From: a virus
Lineage: Duplodnaviria > Heunggongvirae > Uroviricota > Caudoviricetes
DNA: 24,146 nucleotides
IMG/VR virus record: IMGVR_UViG_2698536506_000006
Reading direction: 5' to 3' (one strand)
In this document: positions 1 through 19,403 of the stretch, piece after piece
How the letters are laid out: every line of letters starts with the position of its first letter
Position numbering within the stretch: position 1 is the first letter of the stretch
The notes under the pieces: generated by a model
What the model was told of the DNA's origin: nothing
Database searches by the model: none
Seen by the model: only the letters and a program-made list of their open reading frames with translations
Position numbers and translations under genes: made by a program

Positions 1-1032
1 TCAAAAACTTGCTATTGATGTTGGTAGTGTTGCCAGCGGATTAAACCGTAATGCAGTTTCCAGGTGATCCGGTGCCAGATGTGCGTAACGCATAGTCATT
101 TTTATATCGTGATGCCCTAGAATTTTTTGTAAGGCCAGGATATTTCCACCCGACATCATGAAGTGCGCCGCAAACGTATGGCGCAGAACGTGTGTCAGTT
201 GACCGCGAGGGAGCACGATAGACGTTTTTTCCATCACGGATAAAAATTGAAAATAGCAGTCTGTAAAGAAATTGAACCCATCAAGCGCCATGATCTCTTC
301 GTAAAGCTCTTTACTGATAGGGATGCTTCTGTTTTTCTTCCCCTTCGTTCTTACAAAGGTAATTCGGTATTTGGTCACCTGTGAGCGGGTAAGATTTACG
401 GCTTCTCGCCAGCGTGCGCCTGTGCTTAAGCATATTTTGACTACCAGAGCCAGAATTGGGTCCTGACGTTTGCAATCAGCCAGCAGTTCAACAATCTGCT
501 CATGGGTAAGCCATGCCATCTCTTTTTCTGCGATGGTGAATTTTCGCATGTTCTCCAGTGGGTTTGGATACGACCATTCGCCCAGGCGGGATAGTTCGCT
601 AAAAACACTACTTAGATAGCTTTGCTCCAGGTTAATGGTGACCGGGCTTGCTCCTTTCTTCCATTTCTCGCTGAAGTAGATCTCTCCTGTCAGGCGTTTA
701 TCTCGATAGTGGGCAAACATTTTAGAGGTGAGATCGGTTGCAAGGGGATTGCCCAGAGCGTCAACTATCAACAGCAATTTGTCATAGACATGCTGCCCAG
801 CTGTCAGAGATTTACCATGTAGTTTGAACCATAGCTCAACCACGTCTTTCAGTGTTCGACGATCCACTGATTCACCCAGCCAGGGCTTTGCTTCGGTTTC
901 TTCCATCGTGTGACGCTCAAAAGCCAGAGCTTCACCTTTGGTGGCGAATTGTTTACGCACACGACGCCCACTACGTCCGGCGGGGTAACATTCGCAAAGC
1001 CATTTTCCTGTGGTGAGTTTTCGTACTGCCAT
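1..1032 (-). CDS. int: Tyrosine integrase (P2/186 Int family)
   Basis: ORF ends with stop at 1-3. Start chosen at ATG 1032-1030 (MAVRKLTTGKW...), preceded by GGAGGG with about 8 nt spacing. C-terminal region carries tyrosine-recombinase-like motifs (HVLRHTFA...MMSGGNILALQKILGHHDIKMTMRYAHL). The ORF track extends the frame to 1110. Confidence 0.9.
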   Translation of the reverse strand: MAVRKLTTGKWLCECYPAGRSGRRVRKQFATKGEALAFERHTMEETEAKPWLGESVDRRTLKDVVELWFKLHGKSLTAGQHVYDKLLLIVDALGNPLATDLTSKMFAHYRDKRLTGEIYFSEKWKKGASPVTINLEQSYLSSVFSELSRLGEWSYPNPLENMRKFTIAEKEMAWLTHEQIVELLADCKRQDPILALVVKICLSTGARWREAVNLTRSQVTKYRITFVRTKGKKNRSIPISKELYEEIMALDGFNFFTDCYFQFLSVMEKTSIVLPRGQLTHVLRHTFAAHFMMSGGNILALQKILGHHDIKMTMRYAHLAPDHLETALRFNPLATLPTSIASF

Positions 1033-1218
1033 AAAAAATGCCCTCCAGTGGAGAGCATTTTTACTGTATGTATAACCAGTGTCAATGTATGAAATCCTGC
1101 GACCATACATCTCACTGAAGCCATAATGAAGTTGGCTATTTTTTGCTATGTGAGTATGTGACTTTTGCGGTTAGCCTGCGGCTCATTGTTATATTAGGCG
1201 CAGATATAAAAGCAAAAT

Positions 1219-1425: not shown

Positions 1426-1995
1426 TTACCTAACGTACTTAATTGTTAAACTTATAATTTTTCCAATTATTTTAACATCTTCTATCTTGCACTCGAAGGC
1501 TCTGTTTCCACCTTCAACGAAGATTCTTCCACCGGGTAAACGAGTAATGTCGCGGATTGTTATTTCGCCATCAATACTTATTACCCATTTACCATCACGT
1601 ATATCATCAAATTCTTTATCACAAATAAATTCAGAATTGTTATCTGTGATGACAAAAGGTTTTTTAAACGTAGAGGGTAGAAATCCCTTATCAAAAATAT
1701 AAAAACCGTCTTCACGCAAGGCACCATCAGATAATACATATTTAGCAACTTCCATAGTATTTGTATTACCTGAAGTTTGCTTTGAACCATGCCCGGTTGT
1801 GAGCCAATTAAGCGAGGTGCCTGTTTCAAGGGCGCACTGGATTACCCATTCTGCTGGGAATGAGTCACGCATGTAGCGTGTGGCGAGTGTACTTTTAGAG
1901 ATTCCTAAATGATCGCACAACGCCTGTCGAGTCTTGAATCCATAAGCTTCTACCATGCGCTCTATAGCGCCTCGTCCGCCTTTCTCCAAATTCAT
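1426..1995 (-). CDS. cI: CI immunity repressor (phage 186 CI type)
   Basis: About 190 aa. Shares the pattern I recall for 186 CI (EAYGF..., ...RY.R..., CALETG..NL.WL.TG.G). Sits between int and a divergent apl/cII operon. ATG at 1995 chosen; an in-frame GTG at 2001 is also possible. Confidence 0.8.
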   Translation of the reverse strand: MNLEKGGRGAIERMVEAYGFKTRQALCDHLGISKSTLATRYMRDSFPAEWVIQCALETGTSLNWLTTGHGSKQTSGNTNTMEVAKYVLSDGALREDGFYIFDKGFLPSTFKKPFVITDNNSEFICDKEFDDIRDGKWVISIDGEITIRDITRLPGGRIFVEGGNRAFECKIEDVKIIGKIISLTIKYVR

Positions 1996-2019
1996 GGTCA
2001 CTCCAAGTGAACTTTTATC

Positions 2020-4169: not shown

Positions 4170-5023
4170 GCACCATCCTGAAATGGGCGGGAAATAAAAC
4201 TGCCATAATGTCCGAACTGAAAAAACATCTTCCTGCTGGCCCGCGACTGGTTGAACCTTTCGCGGGTTCCTGTGCTGTGATGATGGAGACGGATTATCCC
4301 AGCTATCTGGTTGCGGATATTAATCCTGATTTAATCAACCTCTATAAAAAGGTTGCCGCTGATTGTGAATCGTTTATATCTCGCGCCAGAGTTTTATTTG
4401 AGATCGCAAACAGGGAGGTGGCTTATTACAACATAAGGCAGGAGTTTAATTACTCAACTGAAATTACTGATTTCATGAAAGCGGTATATTTCCTGTATCT
4501 CAATCGTCACGGTTACCGTGGTTTATGTCGCTATAACAAGAGCGGGCATTTCAACATTCCCTACGGTAATTATAAAAATCCGTATTTCCCTGAAAAAGAA
4601 ATTCGCGCATTTGCAGAAAAGGCCCAGCGAGCAACGTTTATCTGCGCCAGCTTTGATGAAACGCTGGCGATGTTGAAGGCGGGGGATGTGGTGTATTGCG
4701 ATCCGCCGTATGACGGTACGTTTTCCGGCTATCACACTGACGGCTTCACTGAAGATGACCAGTATCACCTGGCATCTGTTCTTGAACATCGGTCATCAGA
4801 AGGACATCCGGTCATTGTTTCTAACAGTGACACATCCCTGATCCGTTCGCTGTATCGCAATTTTACTCACCACTACATCAAGGCAAAACGCAGCATCGGT
4901 GTGGCAGCTGGCGAGGGTAAATCAGCAACAGAAATTATTGCTGTTTCCGGGCCGCGCTGCTGGGTGGGATTTGATTATTCGCGTGGCGTGGATAGTTCTG
5001 CCGTGTACGGAGTACGTGCATGA
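4166..5023 (+). CDS. dam: DNA adenine methyltransferase (Dam family, N6-adenine)
   Basis: Begins [11 protein letters not shown]. AdoMet-binding motif EPFAGSCAV and catalytic DPPY ([11 protein letters not shown]). GGAGGT RBS. Translationally coupled to the upstream and downstream genes. Confidence 0.9.
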
Positions 5024-7407
5024 GTCATGCCGATATGAACAACTGCTGCGGCTTTAACGAAGCTGCCGCATCGTTCTCATGGAACAGCCCGAAAAAGGCC
5101 ATTAACCCTTATCTGGACCCGGCGGAAGTTGCGCCGGTTTCTGCGCTTTCAAACCTGATCACTCTGTACGCTACTGATAACGAGCAGGAACAACTGCGCC
5201 GCGAGGCACTGAGTGATCAGGTCTGGGAGCGTTATTTCTTTAATGAATCCCGTGATCCTGTCCAACGCGAAATGGAGCAGGATAAGCTCATTAGCCGGGC
5301 AAAGATGGCGCATGAGCAGCAGCGTTTTAATCCAGACATGGTCATTCTGACTGACGTCAACGCCCAGCCTTCCCATATCAGCAAGCCGCTGATGCAACGT
5401 ATTGAATATTTCAGCAGCCTGGGCAGGCCAAAGGCTTATTCCCGCTATTTGCGTGAGACGATTAAGCCATGTCTGGAACGACTGGAGCATGTACGCGACA
5501 GCCAGCTATCTGCATCTTTTCGTTTTATGGCAAGCCATGAAGGGCTGGACGGTCTGCTGATCCTGCCTGAAATGAGTCAGGATCAGGTGAAACGCCTGTC
5601 TACCCTTGTCGCTGCGCATATGAGCATGTGTCTTGATGCCGCTTGTGGTGATTTGTACGCCTCCGATGATGTTAAGCCAGAAGAAATCCGCAAGACATGG
5701 GAAAAGGTGGCTGCAGAAACCCTGCGACTGGATGTCATACCGCCTGCGTTTGAGCAACTCCGCCGGAAAAGAAACCGCCGCAAACCTGTGCCTTATGAAC
5801 TCATTCCGGGTTCGCTGGCGCGTATGCTGTGCGCCGACTGGTGGTATCGGAAATTATGGAAGATGCGTTGCGAATGGCGGGAAGAGCAGTTGCGTGCTGT
5901 CTGCCTGGTCAGCAAAAAAGCATCTCCCTATGTCAGCTATGAAGCCGTGATGCATAAACGTGAGCAGCGCCGTAAGTCGCTGGAGTTTTTCCGTTCTCAT
6001 GAACTGGTGAACGAAGACGGCGACACGCTGAACATGGAGGATGTGGTAAACGCCAGCAGCAGCAACCCGGCGCATCGCCGCAACGAGATGATGGCCTGTG
6101 TTAAAGGCCTGGAGCTTATCGCGGAAATGCGTGGTGACTGCGCCGTTTTCTACACCATCACCTGTCCGTCACGTTTCCATTCCACGCTAAATAACGGCAG
6201 GCCAAACCCGACCTGGACCAACGCGACAGTAAGACAAAGCAGCGATTATCTGGTCGGCATGTTTGCTGCATTTCGTAAGGCTATGCACAAAGCCGGGTTG
6301 CGCTGGTATGGCGTGCGGGTGGCTGAGCCGCATCATGACGGCACAGTTCACTGGCACCTGTTGTGTTTCATGCGCAAAAAAGACCGCCGCGCCATTACTG
6401 CATTGTTGCGTAAGTTTGCCATCCGTGAAGACCGCGAGGAGCTGGGCAATAACACGGGGCCACGCTTTAAGTCTGAGCTGATAAACCCGCGCAAAGGAAC
6501 GCCGACAAGCTACATTGCGAAATATATCAGTAAGAATATTGACGGGCGTGGTCTGGCTGGCGAGATCAGTAAGGAAACGGGTAAATCCCTGCGTGATAAC
6601 GCTGAATACGTTAATGCCTGGGCGTCTCTGCATCGTGTTCAGCAATTCCGCTTCTTTGGCATTCCGGGGCGTCAGGCTTACCGTGAACTGCGATTGCTGG
6701 CTGGTCAGGCGGCAAGGCAACAGGGTGACAAAAAAGCAGGTGCGCCGGTACTGGATAACCCGCGCCTTGATGCCATCCTGGCTGCTGCTGATGCTGGTTG
6801 TTTTGCCTCCTACATCATGAAGCAGGGCGGCGTACTGGTTCCCCGCAAATATCACCTCATCAGAACCGCTTATGAAATCAACGAAGAGCCGACCGCCTAT
6901 GGCGATCACGGTATTCGTATTTATGGCATCTGGTCACCCATTGCAGAGGGCAAGATCTGCACTCATGCAGTGAAGTGGAAAATGGTTCGTAAGGCCGTTG
7001 ACGTTCAGGAGGCGGCAGCCGACCAGGGCGCTTGCGCCCCTTGGACTCGTGGCAATAACTGTCCCCTTGTTGAAATTTTGAACCAATCAGGGGGCGAATC
7101 ACCCGAACCCAAAGAGCCGGAGGCGCTGCCGGATCTCCATAATCTGAGCGCGAGGGAACGGCGGGAGCTGACGGCCCGGCTGAGGCTGGTAAAACCGAAG
7201 CGGCGAAAAGGGTACAAACAGGAAATTAACGAACAGCAGCGTCAGCAGCTCGACGCTGAGTTGAGGTCCAGAGGGTTTGAAGCGAGTGAAACAGAGGTGG
7301 ATCTGCTTTTGCGTGGCGGCAGCATTCCGTCCGGGGCCGGGCTGCGTATTTTCTACCGCAACCAGCGCCTGCAGGAAGATGATAAGTGGCGGCAGTGGTA
7401 TTCATGA
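5020..7407 (+). CDS. A: Replication initiation endonuclease gpA (rolling-circle, HUH family)
   Basis: 795 aa. HUH-like motif [10 protein letters not shown] and active-site tyrosine region YIAKYISK. Position after the early regulators as in P2/186. Confidence 0.9.
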
Positions 7408-7497
7408 ATAGCCACAAGGGCACGCAATTACTGCAACGAGTCAGAAGTATCTCATTGAAAGCAAAAAAGCATTTTACATCCGGAAACTTCTTCTATA

Positions 7498-7528
7498 CTG
7501 TATATATAAACAGTGGATATATATACAG
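7498..7528. promoter_or_regulatory. Inverted repeat, candidate operator or promoter element upstream of ORF 7562
   Basis: CTGTATATATA (7498-7508) and its reverse complement TATATATACAG (7518-7528) separated by 9 nt, about 35 bp upstream of an AGGAGGGA RBS. Confidence 0.35.
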
Positions 7529-7561
7529 TTTATTTATCCGGCAGTATCGATAGGAGGGAAG

Positions 7562-7750
7562 ATGCAGGACTATTTTCTGGAGTCGTTGAAGCTCCAGCGC
7601 ATTGATTTTTTTATCAAGCTTGTAGCGGCGAGTGAGTGTGATGACGAAGAAAAGCAGCTGGCGATTCAGTGGGTTTCTGAGTTAACGGATGAGCTGATGG
7701 CGAAGATTCGTGCTCATGAATACAACCGCTCAATGGATATTCCCGGTTAG
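7562..7750 (+). CDS. Hypothetical protein, 62 aa
   Basis: Strong RBS AGGAGGGA. Acidic, helical-looking small protein. Lies between gpA and cos. Confidence 0.5.
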   Translation: MQDYFLESLKLQRIDFFIKLVAASECDDEEKQLAIQWVSELTDELMAKIRAHEYNRSMDIPG

Positions 7751-7828
7751 CAGCAGGAACGTTGCTGGCGCAAGAACTGGCTTCTTACGTCAGCAAGGTT
7801 GAACAACGAGTCCAGCGAGGCGTTAGCC

Positions 7829-8095
7829 ATGGCTAAATCCAACAGCAAATTCCAGACCGTCTATGAGGGGCAGGTGCTTGAGCGTTTCGAGCCCGGTGGA
7901 TGGGTCTTGTTTCAACGCCGTTCTGAATATGGCGGTAAGTTCTGGATGGGACGAACCATGGACGATGTATTTTTGTTTGGTCCCGATCATCCGGTATCTG
8001 GAGGTGAGGCTATGAGCTTCATCATTGATTACGAGGGTGAGCAATTCAGACGGTCTTTACCCGTCGAATATACCCCACAGATACCGCTTTTCTGA
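7829..8095 (+). CDS. Hypothetical protein, about 88 aa
   Basis: ATG at 7829 with GAGG upstream; the frame is open from 7799. Followed by a terminator-like hairpin. Confidence 0.5.
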   Translation: MAKSNSKFQTVYEGQVLERFEPGGWVLFQRRSEYGGKFWMGRTMDDVFLFGPDHPVSGGEAMSFIIDYEGEQFRRSLPVEYTPQIPLF

Positions 8096-8160
8096 GAACC
8101 GGCTGAGTGCATGTCTATGCTGCATGAGATCGCATGATCGTTTGAGGATCGTTTTCGCTG

Positions 8161-8190
8161 AAGCCCGCCAGAACTGGCGGGCTTTTGGTT
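8161..8190 (+). terminator. Rho-independent terminator-like hairpin
   Basis: AAGCCCGCC / GGCGGGCTT 9-bp stem with 6-nt loop, followed by TTTTGGTT. Confidence 0.55.
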
Positions 8191-8231
8191 ATGTCATGCA
8201 GGTGCATGAAAACCGCTACATAAAGCGGGCA

Positions 8232-8250
8232 GGCGTGGCGGGGATACGAG
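8232..8250. other. Candidate cos site (cohesive-end sequence of P2/186 type)
   Basis: GGCGTGGCGGGGATACGAG followed by CGCGCGC. Closely resembles the P2/186 cohesive ends as I recall them (GGCG[A/T]GGCGGGGAAAGCA...). Lies between the A-side and Q-side of the genome as expected. Confidence 0.5.
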
Positions 8251-8297
8251 CGCGCGCCCGGCTTGCTATTTGTTCGTTGCAACATTAGTATTCCTAT

Positions 8298-8450
8298 GCT
8301 CTTTAGCGTTAGGGAACCATTGCGTTCTAGCCGGGCGATAAGCCAGGCTCTAATTTATTGCTCAGTTTAGGGTTGCGAAAGCGACGAATTCGTCGCTTTC
8401 GCTGTCTTTAGTGAAGAGCTCGGCCCGCGCAAGCGGGCCTCACAAGCGGA
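8298..8450 (+). ncRNA. Candidate retron msr/msd non-coding RNA (boundaries approximate)
   Basis: Non-coding stretch immediately upstream of a retron-type RT. Contains a perfect 28-nt palindrome (8375-8402) and a GC hairpin with GCAA loop (8422-8439). Possible promoter TTGCTA (8263-8268), 17-nt spacer, TAGTAT (8286-8291). a1/a2 repeats were not resolved by eye. Confidence 0.35.
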
Positions 8451-9392
8451 ATGTTTATGGAAATTTTATCGGCTGTTAGCAAAGAACTTGGAGTAAACGT
8501 TAACGAGCTGAGGCGGTTATCGAGTGTTGCGCCTAAAAAATATAAAGTCTACACAATTCCTAAACGACAAAGTGGATTCAGGCTTATTGCTCAACCAACG
8601 AGTGAGATAAAGCGAATTCAGCGTGAGGTTGTGAAAATTTTGGCTTCCAAGCTCATCGTGCACGATGCAGCGAAAGCTTATAAAGTTTCTATAGGAATTA
8701 AGGACAATGCCAAAATCCATATGGCAAACTCCTATCTTTTAAAAATGGATTTTCAGAATTTCTTCAATAAAATTAAACCGGCTCTTTTATTTGATAAACT
8801 TCGCTCTCAAGGGGTTGTTTTGTCAGGTGAGGATAAGGAGTTTTTAGAAGGGATTCTTTTCTGGAAACCAGGAAAAAAAAGAAGTATCACTCTCGTGTTG
8901 AGCGTTGGGGCGCCATCCTCACCTTTTGTTAGTAATTTTGTAATGTATGATTTTGATAATTATATAAACAATTGGTGCTCTGTTAGGAATATTTCATATT
9001 CAAGGTATGCTGATGATATTACATTTTCTACAGATGAGAAGAATATACTTTTTGAGGTCCCGAAAGTAGTAAGGTTTGCATTATCATTATGTGCTAAAGG
9101 TATATCTTTAAATGAATCTAAAACTGTATTCACGTCTAAAGCTCATAATAGACATGTGACAGGTGTGACATTAACAGTTGATGGGGAGCTTTCGCTCGGT
9201 AGGCAAAAGAAGAGAATGATTTCTTCTCTGCTGCATAAATATACACTAGGCTTACTGGCTAAAGAGGATGTTATAAGCCTTAAGGGCTTTGTTGGACATG
9301 CTTTATATATCGAGCCTAAATTTATTGCTAGAATGAAAATTAAATATGGGAAAGAAGTAATACATGCGCTTTTTTCTGAGGAGGGGATGTGA
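8451..9392 (+). CDS. Retron-type reverse transcriptase
   Basis: RT motifs: GAPSSPFVSN (motif B-like), RYADDITFS (YADD catalytic motif) and the retron-characteristic VTG motif (NRHVTGVTLTVDG). AT-rich. Alternative start at ATG 8457. Confidence 0.85.
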   Translation: MFMEILSAVSKELGVNVNELRRLSSVAPKKYKVYTIPKRQSGFRLIAQPTSEIKRIQREVVKILASKLIVHDAAKAYKVSIGIKDNAKIHMANSYLLKMDFQNFFNKIKPALLFDKLRSQGVVLSGEDKEFLEGILFWKPGKKRSITLVLSVGAPSSPFVSNFVMYDFDNYINNWCSVRNISYSRYADDITFSTDEKNILFEVPKVVRFALSLCAKGISLNESKTVFTSKAHNRHVTGVTLTVDGELSLGRQKKRMISSLLHKYTLGLLAKEDVISLKGFVGHALYIEPKFIARMKIKYGKEVIHALFSEEGM

Positions 9393-11044
9393 ACTCAAAG
9401 TATACTAAATCACCAAATGACATTCGTACATTATTGCAGTCTTATGTAAATAAAACTGAAGATGGTTTAGAATTCAGTAAAGAGAACATTCCTGAAGAGG
9501 TATCTTCGTTATATAAGGAAATTGAAGATGCACCATTTCTTATAAATAAAGTCGCCATCTCAGACTATAAAAGAGTCAGGGATCTTTTTGTTTCGATCGA
9601 CAAAAAACTAACAGTGTTTGTTGGTGATAATGGTTACGGTAAAACCACCATTCTTGAAGCATTATTTATTGCTTTAAGTTGGTTTAGAGCAAATGTTCAA
9701 AAAGAAGATAAAAGCGGTTTTCATATAAAAGATGGTGATATTAACAATCATAATGATGTCAATTATGCTGCAATAACTGCGCAGTTTAAACTTAAAAAAA
9801 TAACGTCAAATATTTTAGTTACACGTGTTAAAGATGGAGTATCACAAAAAAGAAATAATGAGTTGCTTTCTATAAAAGAGATGGCGTCATTCTTTCGTGT
9901 TGTGAATTCATATTATGAAGATGTAAGCCTTCCGGTTCTTGCATATTACTCTGTATCAAGATCTTCAAATGGTGCAGGCATAGATAATAAAAGAAATGTT
10001 AATAATTCTGTGCGTCGATGGACTAAGCTTGATGCTTATGAAGATATAGAGTTTGATCGCCGTGACTTCGGTGAGTTTTTAAATTGGTTCATATTTGTTA
10101 ATAATAAGGCATTGTCTGAGGAGTCCTTGATACCAGAAAAACAAAGAGATCAACTTGTTATTGATATCTCAAAGCTTAAGGTATCTTTGGAGGTTTTGAA
10201 ATCTTTCAGTGATGTTGATAGAAGAACATTAATAGATATAGAAACACAAATTGCTAATAAAGAGTTGATTCTTAATACGTTACCGTCTACACCAAATGGT
10301 TTAAGTCGTTCAAAAGATATTGTTGCTAATGTTAAAAGGGCAATAATTAATTTCCTTCCTGAAATTAGCTCTGTTGAACTTCAATATACTGAAAATGAAG
10401 TTCGTTTAGTTTTAGCAAAAGATGATTTACTATTAGATGCCCAGCAACTCTCTCAAGGGGAGAAAACTATACTTACATTAGTGGGGGATTTAACAAGACG
10501 CTTGGTGTTGCTGAATCCTAAGTTAAATAATCCACTTCAAGGGAAAGGTATAGTATTAATTGATGAAGTTGATCTTCATTTGCACCCAAGCTGGCAGCAA
10601 AACATTATTGAGAAATTGCAGCATACATTTCCTAACGTACAATTCATAATTACCACTCATAGCCCTCAAATTGTATCGACAGTTCCAAGTAAATGCTTGC
10701 GCATCCTTGAGGAAATAAAAAACCCTTCGACAGGCATGAAGGAATTACGTGTGCTTTTACCATCATCTCAAACAAAAGGTACTAAGAATTCGTACGCTTT
10801 GCTTTATGGGATGAAAACAGATCCTGTACCTAATGTAAAAGAAGTCGCATGGCTGAGCACTTATAAGAAATTTATTGAAAACAGGCAGCAGGATTCGGAG
10901 GAAGCCATAATGATAAGGAAAAAGTTAGACAAGCATTATGGAATTGATCACCCATTATTACTTGAGTGTGATGGTATAATTCGTGTATTAAAGCTAAAAG
11001 ACAAAGTGCGGGGTGAGTCTGGCAATAAGGAATCTAAACAATGA
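9389..11044 (+). CDS. Retron-associated ATPase (PtuA/Septu-like, ABC/OLD-type)
   Basis: Walker A GDNGYGKTT, Walker B VLIDEVDLHLH, H-loop-like ITTHSPQ. GTG start overlapping the RT stop (ATGTGA), preceded by GAGGAGGGG. Confidence 0.8.
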   Translation: MNSKYTKSPNDIRTLLQSYVNKTEDGLEFSKENIPEEVSSLYKEIEDAPFLINKVAISDYKRVRDLFVSIDKKLTVFVGDNGYGKTTILEALFIALSWFRANVQKEDKSGFHIKDGDINNHNDVNYAAITAQFKLKKITSNILVTRVKDGVSQKRNNELLSIKEMASFFRVVNSYYEDVSLPVLAYYSVSRSSNGAGIDNKRNVNNSVRRWTKLDAYEDIEFDRRDFGEFLNWFIFVNNKALSEESLIPEKQRDQLVIDISKLKVSLEVLKSFSDVDRRTLIDIETQIANKELILNTLPSTPNGLSRSKDIVANVKRAIINFLPEISSVELQYTENEVRLVLAKDDLLLDAQQLSQGEKTILTLVGDLTRRLVLLNPKLNNPLQGKGIVLIDEVDLHLHPSWQQNIIEKLQHTFPNVQFIITTHSPQIVSTVPSKCLRILEEIKNPSTGMKELRVLLPSSQTKGTKNSYALLYGMKTDPVPNVKEVAWLSTYKKFIENRQQDSEEAIMIRKKLDKHYGIDHPLLLECDGIIRVLKLKDKVRGESGNKESKQ

Positions 11045-11709
11045 AATTCCTTGCTAGAAATCCCATTGGTCCAGGTGTTTTAGCCGAGTTTGACTACAAT
11101 ATTCATGACTGGAATGCTTTTAAACGGCGACATAAACAATTAGTCTGGGTCGGTTTAGTTGAAATGCAAGGGAAGAGATGTGCGTATTGTGAGCGGAAAA
11201 TAGATATTCACAATAGTGATGATAAGCATATCGAGCATTTTTTGCGTAGAAGCCAGCATAGGCATTTAACATTTGAATGGTCAAACTTGTTCGGCTCTTG
11301 TGCTGAAAATAATCACTGCGGTTTTTACAAAGATGAACAGAGCTATCAGGAGCAAGACCTAATCAAGGCCGATAATGATGACCCCACACATTTTTTCCAT
11401 TTCGCTATTAATGGAAATATGGATATTCGTCCGGGGTTATCGCGAAACGATGAGCGAAGAGCTGAGGTTACTATAAGGGTTTTTAACCTGAATGGTGAAA
11501 AGGGCGGCGTGAAAACTGAGCGCATCAATGCAATATCAGAAACATGGTCATTGATAGAGAGATTTGTTTCTACAGCTGAAGAGTTCATCGAAGAGGGACT
11601 TTATGATGATAGTGTCCGTAACGAACTTCGAGACGAGTATTATAAAGAAATAGACCCCAGACCATTCTCTACTGCGTTGCGTGATGTTTTTGATACGATG
11701 CTTCCTTAA
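11041..11709 (+). CDS. Retron-associated HNH endonuclease (PtuB-like)
   Basis: HNH-type motif CAYCE...DDKHIEHF...N...SCAENNHC. Start overlaps the ATPase stop (ATGA). Confidence 0.8.
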   Translation: MKFLARNPIGPGVLAEFDYNIHDWNAFKRRHKQLVWVGLVEMQGKRCAYCERKIDIHNSDDKHIEHFLRRSQHRHLTFEWSNLFGSCAENNHCGFYKDEQSYQEQDLIKADNDDPTHFFHFAINGNMDIRPGLSRNDERRAEVTIRVFNLNGEKGGVKTERINAISETWSLIERFVSTAEEFIEEGLYDDSVRNELRDEYYKEIDPRPFSTALRDVFDTMLP

Positions 11710-11741
11710 ATTAAAGAGTCTCATTTGAGACTCTTTAATTT
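11708..11741. terminator. Bidirectional terminator between the convergent retron operon and portal gene
   Basis: Near-perfect inverted repeat AAATTAAAGAGTCTCA / TGAGACTCTTTAATTT with a 2-nt loop, between the HNH stop and the portal stop. Confidence 0.6.
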
Positions 11742-12766
11742 TACATCGAATATTCTTTAAAATTTATTATATCGTCATTTAACCATCGGTTGATTTCACA
11801 GATTCTTTGCTGTAAGGGGATTACTTCATTTCTTACAAAAACCTTACTAGCCTTTTCCACATCCCCAAACCCGCCAACATTACTCGGCATAATCCCCATC
11901 ATCTGAGGCGGCACACGATGCGCCGCCATCATGTCATCCCGGCTCACGTTCTTGATATTCAAAAACTCATCCTTCGCCGCGACTTCTGACAACGGGATGA
12001 TCTGAAGCCCGTCCTTTTTGCCGTTAGGCGAGTACATAAACAGGTTGCGGAAGTTACCTGGGCCTTTGGCGCTTTTCATCGCGTTGCGGAGGTTGTTCAC
12101 ATCCTCCTGGTTTTGTGCGGCGTCGGTCATGTACATGATGAAGCCTGCATGACTGCCGTTAATGTAATACTTCCGGCGGAACAGCGTGGCGGACTCGTTG
12201 AGCAGGGCTGACGGAATGGCAGAAAGATAACCGGGCAGGCCGTAGATCTCCTGGTTGATGTCCGGTTCCATCAGATGAAAAATGCTGCCTTTCGTGAACT
12301 GATACGGCTGGGTTGTCATACCGTATTGCACAAACCAGTAGGTATCCAGGTCTAACCCGCGTCGTGTGTATTTTGCCAGGGCAGGTTCAAAGGCGATAAT
12401 TTCACCGAAGCGGTTCGTGCGTTTCTCCAGGTAGGCGTTACCAAATACCAGATAGTCCTGCACAAAACGTGAAAAAGCCTGCTGGCTGAGCAGCGGGTGA
12501 GGGATGTAGGTACTGGTCAGAATGTTGCATTTCACCGCAATTGGTGAACTGTGATGCACGGCGGCGCGGAAGGTGCGCGCCAGTCCGTCAAAGCTTACTG
12601 GCGGCTCATACCAGCGATCTGTCTGTACGCATTCCACATAGTCCAGTAATTCGCGGCGGTCCAGAACAGGAACGGGATCACCGAAGCTGAATGCTTCGGC
12701 TGAAGTTTGTTTTTTATACTGGATCTGATTCGTCGCCGCAGCGCGGTTCTTCTTACTCTTTCCCAT
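11741..12766 (-). CDS. Q: Portal protein (P2 gpQ-like)
   Basis: About 341 aa, the size and position of P2 Q. ATG at 12766-12764 overlaps the terminase stop (ATGA arrangement on the minus strand). Confidence 0.9.
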   Translation of the reverse strand: MGKSKKNRAAATNQIQYKKQTSAEAFSFGDPVPVLDRRELLDYVECVQTDRWYEPPVSFDGLARTFRAAVHHSSPIAVKCNILTSTYIPHPLLSQQAFSRFVQDYLVFGNAYLEKRTNRFGEIIAFEPALAKYTRRGLDLDTYWFVQYGMTTQPYQFTKGSIFHLMEPDINQEIYGLPGYLSAIPSALLNESATLFRRKYYINGSHAGFIMYMTDAAQNQEDVNNLRNAMKSAKGPGNFRNLFMYSPNGKKDGLQIIPLSEVAAKDEFLNIKNVSRDDMMAAHRVPPQMMGIMPSNVGGFGDVEKASKVFVRNEVIPLQQRICEINRWLNDDIINFKEYSM

Positions 12767-14532
12767 CAAAAAATCTCCACAATATTGCTGGTATTGGCGG
12801 ACTCGCCCTGCAGCGGTTCGTTAAACAGTGCGTGCATTGTTGCCCAGGCCAGATCGGCATGGCTGGCTTCTTCGCTGCGGCTGGCTTCATAGGTCGGGCG
12901 GTTGCCGCTGGCGGTGGTGGCACGGCGGATTGCCATGAATGACTGCGCAATGTCGGTGTGTCCGGCGTCAAACTCCAGACGGCGGTGGCTGATAATGTCG
13001 TAGGCCTTGAGTACCAGGGCGTTTTTAACATTGGGGTTATAGACAAACTCCCGGACGGCAGGAAAAAACGCTTTCACGTTCTCATAAACCCCGTGACCGA
13101 CGCCTGTCGAGTCGATGCCGATATAGGTCACGTTGTACTGCTCGGTCAGTTTTTTGATTGCATCAGCTTGGGCGCGGAAGTCCATCCCGCGCCACTGGTG
13201 ACGCTCAAGAATGCGAAACTTACCGCCTGGCACGGCTGGCGGTGCCACCACCACGCATCCGGCGCTGTCGCCGTTCTGCGTACCTTTTGCCGGGTCATAA
13301 CCGATCCACACCTCGCGCCAGCCAAACGGGCGCAGGGCCAGTGCATGAAAGTCGGTCCAGACTTCCCAACTGTCCACCATGCATGCCTGCAGCTCGCTGA
13401 GCGGGAACACGGACGCGAGATCGTCCACAAACTCGCACATCAGCAGGTTCTGGTATTCGTCCGGGCTGTACTCCATGCGCAACTGGTCGAGGTCGAACAG
13501 GTTACAGCCGCCGCGCACCGCATCTTCCACGGTGACTATCTGGCGGTATTGCCCGTCTGCGCACAGCAGGCCGGGGGCCAAGTTGCTGTGGGACAGGTCG
13601 ATGTCCACCTTGTCGGCTTTGTTGCGTCCACGGTTGAACAGCGCACCGGACCAGAATGGATAAGCACTGTGGGTCAGACTGGATGGCGTGGAAAAATAGG
13701 TCTGCCGCCATTTTTTGTGAATAGCCATACCGGAAGCCACTTTGCGCAGCTCCTGGAATTTCGGGATCCAGAAATATTCATCCAGATACAGGTTGCCGTG
13801 GTAACTCTGGGCCGTGCGGGCATTGGTGCCGAGGAAGTAAAGCGTGGCCCCGTTAGGAAGCACCATCGGATCGCCTTTCAGCTCCACCTCCACTTCTTTG
13901 GCAAAGTCGATGATGTACTGTTTAAAGACGTGGGCCTGAGCCTTGCTGGCAGAAAGGAAAATCTGGTTACGCCCGGTCAGCAGGGCGTCAATCAGGGCTT
14001 CACGGGCAAAGTAAAAGGTCGCGCCGATCTGGCGTGACTTCAGCAGGTTGCGGATGCGGTTGGTTTTTCCGGCTTCCCACCAGTGGCGCTGGTAGTTGAA
14101 CATGGAGGAATGGAAGATTTCTTCCAGCTTCTCAATCTGTTCATCGGTGAAAACATTCTTTTCCGGCTGACGGCGCGGGCCTTTGTTGCGGTTGGCGACG
14201 TTTGGGTTTAAGTCGGCTTCGTTGCCGCCATTGTTAAACTTGCCGATCCGCGCGTGGCGTTCCGACTGGCGCGCCAGCAGGTCAATCTCTTTGAAATCTT
14301 TCCCTTCTTTGTGCTCCTTCATAATGAGCTGGCAGTAGCGTGCGGCGGTGGTGAGCTGCATCTGATCCAGCGGCCCATAGTCACCCCACTTGTCGCGTTT
14401 TTTCCAGCTGTGAACGGTTGCAACTTTCTCGCCCAGCATTTCAGCAATGCGGGCTACGCGGTATCCCTGAAAGTACAGCAGCATGGCCTGCCGACGGGGA
14501 TCGAGATCTGCGGGTGTCAGTGTGGTGTTCAT
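12766..14532 (-). CDS. P: Terminase large (ATPase) subunit (P2 gpP-like)
   Basis: 588 aa, divergent from the scaffold gene as in P2 (P/O divergent late promoters). Confidence 0.9.
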   Translation of the reverse strand: MNTTLTPADLDPRRQAMLLYFQGYRVARIAEMLGEKVATVHSWKKRDKWGDYGPLDQMQLTTAARYCQLIMKEHKEGKDFKEIDLLARQSERHARIGKFNNGGNEADLNPNVANRNKGPRRQPEKNVFTDEQIEKLEEIFHSSMFNYQRHWWEAGKTNRIRNLLKSRQIGATFYFAREALIDALLTGRNQIFLSASKAQAHVFKQYIIDFAKEVEVELKGDPMVLPNGATLYFLGTNARTAQSYHGNLYLDEYFWIPKFQELRKVASGMAIHKKWRQTYFSTPSSLTHSAYPFWSGALFNRGRNKADKVDIDLSHSNLAPGLLCADGQYRQIVTVEDAVRGGCNLFDLDQLRMEYSPDEYQNLLMCEFVDDLASVFPLSELQACMVDSWEVWTDFHALALRPFGWREVWIGYDPAKGTQNGDSAGCVVVAPPAVPGGKFRILERHQWRGMDFRAQADAIKKLTEQYNVTYIGIDSTGVGHGVYENVKAFFPAVREFVYNPNVKNALVLKAYDIISHRRLEFDAGHTDIAQSFMAIRRATTASGNRPTYEASRSEEASHADLAWATMHALFNEPLQGESANTSNIVEIF

Positions 14533-16586: not shown

Positions 16587-19403
16587 ATGAGCCTGAGTCC
16601 CGCACGGCAGCATCGCCTGCGCGTTCAGGCTGAACAGGCCGCCCGCGAGGGCGGCAGTGTTCGCCACGCATCGGGCTATGACCTGATGCTGCTGCAACTG
16701 GCGGAAGACCGCCGCCGTCTCAAGGGCGTTCAGTCCACGGTCAAAAAAGCGGAAATCAAGGTGGAGCTGCTGCCGAAGTACGCCGCCTGGGCAGAGGGTG
16801 TCCTGGCTGCCGGAGGCGCTCAACAGGATGACGTGCTGATGTACGTGATGCTGTGGCGCATTGATGCCGGAGATTATGCCGGGGCGCTGGAGATCGGGCG
16901 TCACGCCCTGCGTCATGGCTGGGTGATGCCGTTGGGTAACCGCAACGTGCAGACCGTGCTGGCAGAGGAAATGGCAGACGCGGCGCAGAGCGCAATGCTT
17001 GCCGCCACCGGCTTTGATGCTGATCTGTTGCTGCAGACGCTGGAGCTGACAGACGGTCTGGATATGCCGGACCAGTCACGGGCACGTCTGCATAAAGCGA
17101 TTGGCGCTGTCTGGACCGACGGCATTGGTAATACGTCAGGCGTCATTCCCGGCAAAACCATTACGGAGCGACAGGCAGCAGAAGGGCTGATCTCCAACGT
17201 GCTGCGTGTCGAGCGGGCGCTGGAAAGGTGTGTGAAGCAACAGCCGCCGCAGAAGGTGTATGACGCTGCGGTGTCGTTTGCCTTCAACGTGGGAACGGGC
17301 AATGCCTGCAGTTCCACGCTGGTGAAATTACTCAATCAGCGGCGCTGGGCAGATGCGTGCCGACAGTTGCCGCGCTGGGTTTATGTGAAAGGTGTTTTTA
17401 ATCAGGGGCTGGATAACAGGCCAACCGCCGCGCAGGCAAAGTTATTCAGTCAGGCCAAAACACGAGTACAGGAACTTCAGCAGACTTATAACGGCTTGTT
17501 GGGGGCGGTCCAGAGACAACGTCAGGCACTTAAAGAATCAGGGATTGATACCAGACAACTCAGTAGTGCCCAGCGAGAACTTAAAAAAAATGCTGAAGAA
17601 ACAAGGCAGGCACTGGAGGGCCAGCAAAAAGCACTTAAACGTCTGGGTGAACAACAGGCACGGATGAACGCTGCCAGAGAACAATACTCAAGACGGCTTG
17701 AAGTGCGCGATCGCATCGCAGGAGCCGGAGCCACTACCACGGCTGCAGGGCTGGCAATGGGTGCGCCAGTGATGGCGGCAGTAAAAAGCTATACCAGCAT
17801 GGAAGATGCCATGAAAGGTGTGGCAAAGCAGGTCAATGGTCTGCGTGACGATAATGGCAACCGCACTGCACGTTTTTATGAAATGCAGGATGCCATCAAG
17901 GCTGCCAGCGAACAGTTGCCGATGGAAAACGGTGCGGTGGACTTCGCTGCACTGGTTGAAGGTGGTGCGCGCATGAACGTCGCAAACCCTGACGACAGCT
18001 GGAAAGACCAGAAACGTGACCTGCTGGCCTTCGCCAGTACGGCAGCAAAGGCGGCAACAGCCTTTGAGCTGCCAGCGGATGAACTGTCAGAAAGTCTGGG
18101 GAAAATCGCCCAGCTCTACAAAATACCTACGGCAGCAGTAACTCGAACCAGCAGCGCGTTGTCCTGGCTGGCTGGCGCACCACTGGCACTGCTGCGACGC
18201 GGGCTTGCTTCATCGGGCAACGCAGCGGGTTTACTTACTGCGCCGTTGTCGTCTTTGCGCCGCACGGCATCACTGACGGGGAATGTCCTGAAAACTGTAG
18301 CAGGTGTGCCGGTTGCACTGTTGCGGTCTGGATTATCCGGTTTACGTGCTGTTGCTGTGATGTTTATGAATCCACTGGCAGCACTACGCGGTGGACTGGC
18401 TGCCGCAGGCGCGGTGCTGCGAGTGCTGGCATCCGGTCCGCTGGCGATGCTGCGCGTTGCTCTGTATGCCGTATCTGGTCTGTTAGGTGCTCTGCTCAGT
18501 CCGATAGGTCTTGTGGTTACTGCACTGGCAGGCGTGGCGCTGGTTGTCTGGAAATACTGGCAACCCATCACCGCATTTCTCGGTGGCGTGGTGGAAGGAT
18601 TCAAAGCGGCGGCAGGTCCCATCAGTGCTGCATTCGAACCACTTAAGCCTGTGTTTCAGTGGATTGGCGACAAAGTGCAGGCGCTGTGGGGCTGGTTTAC
18701 TGATCTGCTGACGCCTGTTAAGTCGACCTCTGCCGAACTGCAGAGCGCAGCGGCAATGGGGCGACGATTCGGGGAGGCACTGGCGGAAGGGCTGAATATG
18801 GTCATGCATCCGCTGGACTCCCTGAAATCCGGCGTTTCCTGGTTGCTGGAGAAACTCGGCATTGTCAGTAAAGAGGCTGCAAAGGCGAAACTGCCGGAAA
18901 GCGTGACGCGTCAGCAACCTGCGACGGTGAATGCAGACGGTAAAGTGATGATGCCATCAGGTGGTTTTCCATCATGGGGATATGGTTTTGCGGGGATGTA
19001 TGACAGCGGTGGGTATATCCCGCGCGGGCAGTTTGGCATTGTCGGTGAAAACGGGCCTGAAATTGTCAACGGCCCGGCAAACGTGACCAGCCGGAGAAAT
19101 ACAGCTGCACTGGCTGCCGTTGTTGCCGGAATGATGGGTGTTGCTGCCGCGCCAGTAGAGCTTCCACCGTTGCACCCTTTGGCATTTCCCGCGAAAGGCG
19201 GTGAAGCGATGGTGAGTCGCGCAGCCACTGTGCCGCCCGTTCAACGGATTGAGGCACCGACGCAGATCATCATCCAGACGCAGCCAGGACAAAGTGCGCA
19301 GGATATTGCGCGGGAGGTGGCACGCCAGCTTGATGAACGTGAACGCAGGCTGAAGGCAAAAGCCAGGAGTAACTACAGCGATCAGGGGGGATACGACGCA
19401 TGA
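16587..19403 (+). CDS. Chimeric 938-aa ORF: gpM-like N-terminus (about aa 1-170), lysozyme-like C-terminal segment (about aa 175-280), then tail tape-measure protein gpT-like (about aa 290-938)
   Basis: N-terminus has gpM-like features (...AQQDDVLMYVMLWRIDAGDYAGALEIGRHALRHG...). Middle has GH24 phage-lysozyme C-terminal motifs (VYDAAVSFAFNVGTGNACSSTLVKLLNQRRWADACRQLPRWVY). The remainder is coiled-coil plus Ala/Leu/Gly-rich hydrophobic repeats typical of tape-measure proteins, ending just before gpU. Junctions approximately at nt 17080-17110 and 17400-17455. Confidence 0.7.
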   Translation: MSLSPARQHRLRVQAEQAAREGGSVRHASGYDLMLLQLAEDRRRLKGVQSTVKKAEIKVELLPKYAAWAEGVLAAGGAQQDDVLMYVMLWRIDAGDYAGALEIGRHALRHGWVMPLGNRNVQTVLAEEMADAAQSAMLAATGFDADLLLQTLELTDGLDMPDQSRARLHKAIGAVWTDGIGNTSGVIPGKTITERQAAEGLISNVLRVERALERCVKQQPPQKVYDAAVSFAFNVGTGNACSSTLVKLLNQRRWADACRQLPRWVYVKGVFNQGLDNRPTAAQAKLFSQAKTRVQELQQTYNGLLGAVQRQRQALKESGIDTRQLSSAQRELKKNAEETRQALEGQQKALKRLGEQQARMNAAREQYSRRLEVRDRIAGAGATTTAAGLAMGAPVMAAVKSYTSMEDAMKGVAKQVNGLRDDNGNRTARFYEMQDAIKAASEQLPMENGAVDFAALVEGGARMNVANPDDSWKDQKRDLLAFASTAAKAATAFELPADELSESLGKIAQLYKIPTAAVTRTSSALSWLAGAPLALLRRGLASSGNAAGLLTAPLSSLRRTASLTGNVLKTVAGVPVALLRSGLSGLRAVAVMFMNPLAALRGGLAAAGAVLRVLASGPLAMLRVALYAVSGLLGALLSPIGLVVTALAGVALVVWKYWQPITAFLGGVVEGFKAAAGPISAAFEPLKPVFQWIGDKVQALWGWFTDLLTPVKSTSAELQSAAAMGRRFGEALAEGLNMVMHPLDSLKSGVSWLLEKLGIVSKEAAKAKLPESVTRQQPATVNADGKVMMPSGGFPSWGYGFAGMYDSGGYIPRGQFGIVGENGPEIVNGPANVTSRRNTAALAAVVAGMMGVAAAPVELPPLHPLAFPAKGGEAMVSRAATVPPVQRIEAPTQIIIQTQPGQSAQDIAREVARQLDERERRLKAKARSNYSDQGGYDA

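Follow-up and report, generated by a model that had tools for sequence, protein, structure and literature searches.

We analysed a 24,146-nucleotide (nt) stretch of viral DNA (Caudoviricetes; IMG/VR record IMGVR_UViG_2698536506_000006), referred to below as the window, which represents a P2-family prophage of the 186/Fels-2 type. Our subject is the interval between replication gene A (gpA; 5020–7407, plus strand; Pfam Phage_GPA, E = 2.5e-127) and the cohesive-end site cos, whose sequence GGCGTGGCGGGGATACGAG (8232–8250) forms the right boundary. Between them, on the same strand as gene A, lie an inverted repeat, two small open reading frames (ORFs) of 62 and 88 amino acids (ORF62, 7562–7750; ORF88, 7829–8095) and a terminator (8161–8190). 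An initial annotation, made from the sequence alone, had described these elements, the strong ribosome-binding site of ORF62 and the placement between gpA and cos, all of which we could verify. RefSeq labels both products “hypothetical protein”. We propose, with a probability of about 0.88, that positions 7473–8190 constitute a LexA-repressed SOS operon (tum) of the prophage, in which the Tum protein encoded by ORF62 would wake the prophage and ORF88 is a co-transcribed accessory gene. Both ORFs are real genes, as judged from their PHROG matches, their homologues and the confidence of their AlphaFold2 (AF2) models.

Overlapping LexA boxes upstream of ORF62

A repeat finder places the arms of the inverted repeat at 7494–7508 and 7518–7532 (15 nt, 93% complementary, 9-nt spacer), which contains the shorter repeat first noted, CTGTATATATA-N9-TATATATACAG. 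The repeat holds two matches to the LexA (SOS) box consensus TACTGTATATATATACAGTA. Box 1, TACTGTATATATAAACAGTG (7496–7515; core 7498–7513), agrees with the consensus at 18 of 20 positions. Box 2 (7511–7530; core GTGGATATATATACAG, 7513–7528) is degenerate, agreeing at 16 of 20, and overlaps box 1 so that the two cores share one G. A scan of the window with the 20-mer consensus, allowing up to three mismatches, returned 7496–7515 as the sole match (two mismatches) and none in 100 shuffles; CTGT-N8-ACAG likewise occurs once in the 24 kb. The first six bases of box 1, TACTGT (7496–7501), double as the -10 element of a candidate plus-strand promoter, with the -35 element TTTACA (7473–7478) 17 bp upstream. 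The p95 promoter of phage 186 is annotated with an equal layout, comprising a -35 of TTCACA, a -10 of TACTGT and a LexA site that starts at the -10.

All 39 relatives for which upstream sequence was available, including 186, Fels-2 and DuoHS (a P2-like prophage of Escherichia coli HS), have CTG-N10-CAG at the register of box 1, with divergent flanks, and most have TTTACA or TTCACA at the same spacing. Box 2, as NTG-N10-CAG in the same register, is found in 25 of the 39, including Fels-2 and DuoHS. It is not present in the Pantoea and Erwinia loci, in 186 or in E. coli S3, which has a single LexA box. From its sequence, the inverted repeat is the predicted operator of the host repressor LexA, formed by a pair of overlapping SOS boxes, of which box 2 is probably occupied as well as box 1.

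The initial guess that the repeat serves as an operator was sound, but an 18/20 box conserved in every relative points to host LexA and to no phage regulator. A repeat of this length and complementarity beside a promoter could in principle bind CI, Apl/Cox or CII, since phage repressors often bind such sites. We consider this highly improbable: each half of the repeat falls in a separate LexA box of the CTGT-N8-ACAG type, single-box relatives keep the box and lose the large inverted repeat, the box is kept across hosts and immunity types including that of 186, and a lexA(Ind-) background blocks induction of DuoHS, as described below.

Colicin operators have the same arrangement, two 16-mer cores with one common base at a CAGTGG junction. 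Their two overlapping SOS boxes are bound by two LexA dimers, giving very tight repression that prevents untimely expression (PMC2994835). By analogy, the double box in the window may set a high threshold for tum expression. The colicin operators drive a toxin, whereas the operator in the window would drive an antirepressor.

ORF62 corresponds to the Tum antirepressor

The ATG of ORF62 follows the Shine–Dalgarno (SD) sequence AGGAGG (7552–7557). The protein matches phrog_698 (E = 5e-36), has 462 database homologues and is 90% identical both to ECHS_RS04495 of E. coli HS and to STM2728 of Fels-2. The Phollow study deleted ECHS_RS04495 under the name “tum” and found that mitomycin C induction of DuoHS was abolished both by this deletion and by lexA(Ind-), which encodes a non-cleavable LexA (PMC12055606). 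The 186-type CI repressor of the window (1426–2001, minus strand; Pfam Phage_CI_repr, E = 2.8e-33, and Phage_CI_C, E = 2.4e-28) is 95% identical to DuoHS CI. That induction requires tum and a cleavable LexA is thus shown by close homology to experiments, the genetics having been done on components 90–95% identical to those of the window.

Full-length relatives of ORF62 were found in 66 phage records and 33 species-representative Enterobacterales genomes, always directly after gpA. Many homologue entries (P0002, P0006–P0010 and others) are 75–109 amino acids long because gene callers picked an upstream start, which reads through the LexA boxes; the conserved 62-residue length and the AGGAGG sequence indicate the ATG at 7562.

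Lemire et al. reported that tum is split in two in Fels-2 and PSP3, with antirepressor activity in the upstream half (PMC3121763). The PSP3 record names the split genes TumA and TumB (a literature search on these names found nothing relevant), and ORF62 is the positional equivalent of TumA. ORF62 and the N-terminus of 186 Tum have PHROGs 698, 8554 and 1993 in common. A hidden Markov model (HMM) of the ORF62 family is collinear with residues 5–43 of 186 Tum at 12.6 bits, a score reached by 1 of 5000 shuffles, and hhalign pairs residues 4–43 of the family with residues 4–43 of 186 Tum (E = 4e-4). The AF2 model of ORF62 is a two-helix hairpin with a predicted local distance difference test (pLDDT) score of 89, a predicted shape that fits a small protein-binding antirepressor. 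Fold searches with this model were uninformative, and Pfam, NCBIfam and PADLOC yielded nothing meaningful for ORF62. On the basis of its orthologues we assign ORF62 as Tum, of the Fels-2 type: the core induction switch of SOS-inducible P2-family phages, and not cargo. Among the functions first suggested for the two ORFs, that of a regulator was right for ORF62.

A covarying hairpin and a conserved tail precede ORF88

Directly after the tum stop codon, the plus strand encodes a conserved 17-bp RNA hairpin (7758–7800), followed by a near-invariant tail, GGTTGAACAACGAG-N4-GCGAGGCGTTAGCC (7797–7828), which ends at the ATG of ORF88 and supplies its SD sequence, GAGG. In 20 loci, 95.9% of the alignment cells of the hairpin are paired, compared with 33–47% when the partner strand is slid. 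Eight pairs show compensatory changes, and the observed covariation score was reached by none of 500 shuffles. The G-U pairs favour the plus strand as the source of the RNA. The 81-nt region 7751–7831, which includes the hairpin, has a minimum free energy of -28.7 kcal/mol; no Rfam family was found in 7750–7830. As no U-tract follows the hairpin, it is not a standard terminator, and no terminator was detected between tum and ORF88.

With up to seven mismatches allowed, the tail was found in 21 fetched loci in addition to the window; in 186 it is placed after orf97. The hairpin/tail element occurs in 58 phage records, all of them 186/Fels-2/PSP3-like, SOS-inducible Peduoviridae. It sits after the last core gene (tum or dinI, or orf97 in 186) with the variable next gene beginning directly behind it, and it is retained even where there is no downstream gene. 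The tail is conserved at the nucleotide level and with no codon pattern, for which reason we rejected a coding reading that would start at a TTG at 7799 in frame with ORF88. The element may act in processing, stability or translation control. Two other ideas were dropped. As a small-RNA seed, the tail has complementary sites in the window that are only chance 8–10-mers involving the variable 4 nt. Its GTTGAAC resembles an integron core site (GTTRRRY), but an inverse core is lacking and the variable genes begin 28 nt further on.

ORF88 is an accessory gene of the operon

ORF88 belongs to the phrog_2100 family (E = 4.5e-22), and we class it as an accessory gene of the SOS operon. A word-indexed search for homologues returned just four proteins, and an exhaustive search was used instead; among 1.8 billion representatives it gave relatives in 47 clusters at 50% identity. 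Family members are all named “hypothetical” or “LF-82”. AF2 predicts four strands and one helix (pLDDT 83), with a C-terminal tail of low confidence (pLDDT 58). A DUF6404 match was made by a single family member and was not taken as meaningful.

Behind tum or dinI, 12 of the 39 related loci have an ORF88-like gene, which in most cases closes the operon about 130 nt ahead of cos. Seven of these 12 loci have dinI and five, including the window, do not. A DinI-like gene is the commonest second gene of the operon (22 of 39 loci), and ORF88 holds its place in the window. One might therefore see ORF88 as a functional stand-in for DinI, modulating the SOS response on RecA filaments. This seems improbable, since DinI and ORF88 occur together in the seven loci mentioned and are therefore not alternatives, and ORF88 has no sequence or fold similarity to DinI.

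Homologues of ORF88 in other phage types, namely a P22-like phage, SSU5 and a Serratia phage, are each preceded by a canonical LexA box of their own, some 30 nt before the ATG. We sampled 71 distinct viral-contig contexts: in 43, the gene has a private CTG-N10-CAG box 31–59 nt upstream; about 25 of the remainder lie directly behind a tum-operon tail and four behind degenerate tails. Upstream of ORF88 homologues there are 8.7 LexA boxes per kb, whereas the rest of these loci has 0.56 per kb. From these sites, the family is predicted to be under LexA control throughout the homologue contexts sampled. Where the gene occurs in P22-like, SSU5-like and other temperate phages, it also has a -35 element of its own, TTGAC(C/T) (L009 2466–2487, L010 2467–2488, L011 2464–2485; L045–L124). 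In some P2-like loci (for example L066, L090, L096, L098 and L110), the ORF88-like gene follows the tum-operon tail and is in addition preceded by a second LexA box, private to it.

A small protein that is LexA-controlled in every context and lies inside an antirepressor operon could itself be a second antirepressor, for instance one acting on the repressors of co-resident prophages in the manner of Gifsy/Fels-1 cross-talk, and small LexA-controlled antirepressors that act in trans are documented (PMC3121763). Such a role would be redundant where ORF88 co-occurs with tum, and the family is present in phages with unrelated immunity systems. One of its homologues belongs to a P22-like phage with an S24 self-cleavage domain in its repressor, so that no antirepressor is needed there. 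Further, a tblastn search of the phage collection with ORF88 gave 35 hits and no Gifsy record, and hence no detectable similarity to the Gifsy antirepressors. A second antirepressor is accordingly doubtful, if slightly less so than a DinI substitute. Its coexistence with tum and its occurrence in the S24-repressor phage also make ORF88 unlikely to be the main antirepressor.

We favour instead an SOS-phase accessory protein, and not a defence gene, as the likely identity of ORF88. Its C-terminus, QIPLF, is conserved in the family as φ-x-L-F/T: among 94 distinct members, 66 end in x-φ-x-L-x and 25 in [QN]-φ-x-L-[FL]. SOS polymerases bind the β clamp through a motif of this type. The β-binding consensus is Q-L-x-L-F, usually C-terminal (PMC4549789), and QIPLF, in the low-confidence tail of ORF88, agrees with the β-clamp pentapeptide pattern Q-φ-x-L-F. 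Our best guess, offered as a lead from the sequence, is that this conserved and presumably disordered C-terminus may dock on a hub of host replication or repair, with the β sliding clamp as the leading candidate. A wider proposal can be made only tentatively, at low odds though higher than those of either role considered above. It holds that phrog_2100 is an unrecognised LexA-regulon family of about 85 residues, present in P2-like, P22-like, SSU5-like and other phages, which would dock on the host β clamp through a C-terminal Q/N-φ-x-L-F during the SOS response and redirect or block host replication and repair for the benefit of the induced prophage. The upstream hairpin and tail would then be a dedicated RNA element controlling the cassettes of the tum operon.

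The operon ends shortly before cos

The intrinsic terminator of the operon (8161–8190, plus strand) is an 11-bp G+C-rich hairpin (8161–8184) with perfect 11-nt arms, AAGCCCGCCAG/CTGGCGGGCTT, followed by TTTGGTT. It folds at -21 kcal/mol (z = -3.3), and none of 200 shuffles was as good. We place cos by identity to the annotated cos of phage 186, GGCGTGGCGGGGAAAGCAT, at positions 1–19 of the 186 record, with flanks homologous to the window; most relatives have the motif GGCGNGGCGGGG downstream of tum. The non-coding block 8103–8257 is about 92% identical across P2-like phages of Klebsiella, Escherichia and Salmonella, which exceeds the conservation of the neighbouring genes. The operon terminator and the left part of cos both fall within the block, so its conservation probably reflects roles in packaging and termination.

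The defence cargo is a retron beyond cos

A complete type I-A (Ec78-like) retron occupies 8298–11709, between cos and the portal gene (11741–12769, minus strand). It comprises an msr (8298–8366; Rfam RF00170 at 55.1 bits, above the threshold of 52), a probable msd hairpin (8375–8402), a reverse transcriptase (8451–9392; PADLOC RT_I-A, E = 3e-131), the PtuA ATPase (9389–11044) and the HNH protein PtuB (11041–11709). PADLOC identified all three proteins with E values of 3e-131 to 3e-181 and returned no family for ORF62 and none for ORF88. This retron is the variable defence cargo of the prophage, and cos separates it from the two ORFs. A perfect hairpin, AAAGAGTCTCA-TT-TGAGACTCTTT (11713–11739), lies between the convergent ptuB and portal genes and is probably a bidirectional terminator. 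Beyond it, the 3′ end of the portal ORF is unusually AT-rich.

P2 carries tin and old in the interval between A and cos. On this map, ORF62 and ORF88 had first been taken for variable cargo in the tin/old slot, that is, horizontally acquired genes for defence, anti-defence or superinfection exclusion with an operator of their own. ORF88 is indeed variable, being present in 12 of the 39 loci, and it is also found in accessory regions of P22-like and SSU5-like phages; moreover, orf97, a gene of this operon in 186, carries the annotation that its expression from a plasmid blocks infection by 186. ORF62, however, is conserved after gpA in all relatives whatever cargo they carry. Such housekeeping homology had been named at the outset as the finding that would count against cargo, and the protein is 90% identical to a characterised tum whose product is required for induction. 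The operator is a host LexA box, and a LexA-repressed gene would be silent in a resting lysogen, a pattern unsuited to defence encoded by a prophage. The absence of a PADLOC family for either ORF and the retron beyond cos also weigh against a defence module. The tin/old reading is already refuted for ORF62, and for the pair as a whole we hold it to be improbable.

Comparison with related SOS operons

The tum genes of DuoHS and Fels-2 (STM2728) resemble ORF62 in their position after gpA, their length of 62 residues, the double LexA box and the -35 element. DuoHS further shares with the window the near-identical CI and the chromosomal site, rcdA/ybjL. DuoHS and Fels-2 differ from the window in having tum followed by dinI and a 243-aa gene, whereas the window has tum and ORF88 without dinI. 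In the SOS operon of 186 (p95, tum, orf97), the LexA box over the TACTGT -10, the location between A and cos, an antirepressor directed at a 186-type CI and the hairpin/tail element near the 3′ end are all shared with the window. Unlike ORF62, 186 Tum has 146 aa and joins an antirepressor half to a DinI-like half, and its N-terminal half is only remotely similar to ORF62; phage 186 also has a single LexA box, and orf97 in place of ORF88. PSP3 has the split genes, a small upstream antirepressor annotated “UV induction of prophage” and a LexA box ahead of it. In sequence, its TumA follows the 186 type: BLASTP did not match it to ORF62, and hhalign gave E = 0.097. PSP3 also has the DinI-like TumB that the window lacks.

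The dinI-gfoA/gftA-irsA operon of Gifsy phages shares LexA control and the combination of a small antirepressor with accessory genes, whose deletion has no effect on induction (PMC3121763); the phages are lambdoid, however, with another gene order and unrelated protein sequences. P2 tin/old shares with the operon of the window the A–cos interval. These are constitutive exclusion or defence genes of a phage that is not SOS-inducible, whereas the interval in the window appears to be a LexA-repressed regulatory operon.

State of the prophage

The integrase gene (1–1110, minus strand) and a CII gene are present in the window. Relative to DuoHS, which is intact and inducible, the prophage is a deletion remnant that has lost about 11 kb of late genes for lysis and tail, corresponding to HS positions 932917–934164, 934473–943775 and 944209–945035. 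A 938-aa ORF (16587–19403) is a fusion of small-terminase, lysozyme and tape-measure fragments. The region 7440–8300 is 100% identical to E. coli M37H, and 1273 of 5426 complete E. coli genomes have matches to parts of it. The M37H prophage has a deletion that is larger still. E. coli S3 (NZ_CP010228; L008 1946–2733) has an insertion of two reverse-strand genes with no assigned function between gpA and the tum promoter, so that the SOS operon has another variable slot on its gpA side.

A model for induction

The boxes, the promoter, the layout of the operon and their conservation, as read from sequence, support the following scheme. In the lysogen, dimers of host LexA would occupy box 1, over the -10, and probably box 2, keeping the promoter shut. 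DNA damage would lead to RecA-stimulated self-cleavage of LexA and open the tum promoter. Tum would then be made, bind the 186-type CI and take it off its operators, and the early lytic operon (Apl/Cox-like, CII and replication gene A) would be derepressed on removal of CI. ORF88 would be co-transcribed from the tum promoter, through the hairpin, to the terminator just before cos.

Several observations weigh against this interpretation. A generic sigma-70 scan calls no promoter in the upstream region of tum, a silence explained by the weak -10, which agrees with TATAAT at three of six positions only. Box 2 begins with GTG and not CTG, as the one-base overlap with box 1 dictates, and is missing in 14 of 39 relatives. 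BLASTP found no similarity of ORF62 to 186 Tum or PSP3 TumA; the link to these proteins is therefore remote, and depends on profile comparisons and on the orthologues in DuoHS and Fels-2. The DinI-like partner was not found in the operon of the window, being a typical and not an essential feature; all other sequence-testable features that define the 186/Fels-2/PSP3 family of SOS operons are present. ORF88 has no fold or family match in Pfam, NCBIfam, PADLOC or the fold libraries searched, and in many members of its family the C-terminus reads D-F-x-L-T, which fits the clamp motif poorly. The prophage is defective: with its late genes deleted, induction cannot lead to virions or phage release, and it is the switch itself that is intact. 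Finally, the evidence for this particular locus comes from sequence and homology.

Implications

The core of these findings is already known biology of 186 and Fels-2 that standard annotation leaves unnamed. What is new is the tum-ORF88 variant of the operon, the ORF88 family with its predicted LexA control in every sampled context and its C-terminus resembling a clamp motif, and the covarying hairpin with its tail. A gene labelled “hypothetical protein” corresponds to the switch that decides whether these P2-family prophages respond to DNA-damaging antibiotics, and the corrected layout places the true cargo slot beyond cos. The ORF88 family, or the conserved RNA element, could reveal a further layer in the use that prophages make of the SOS response.

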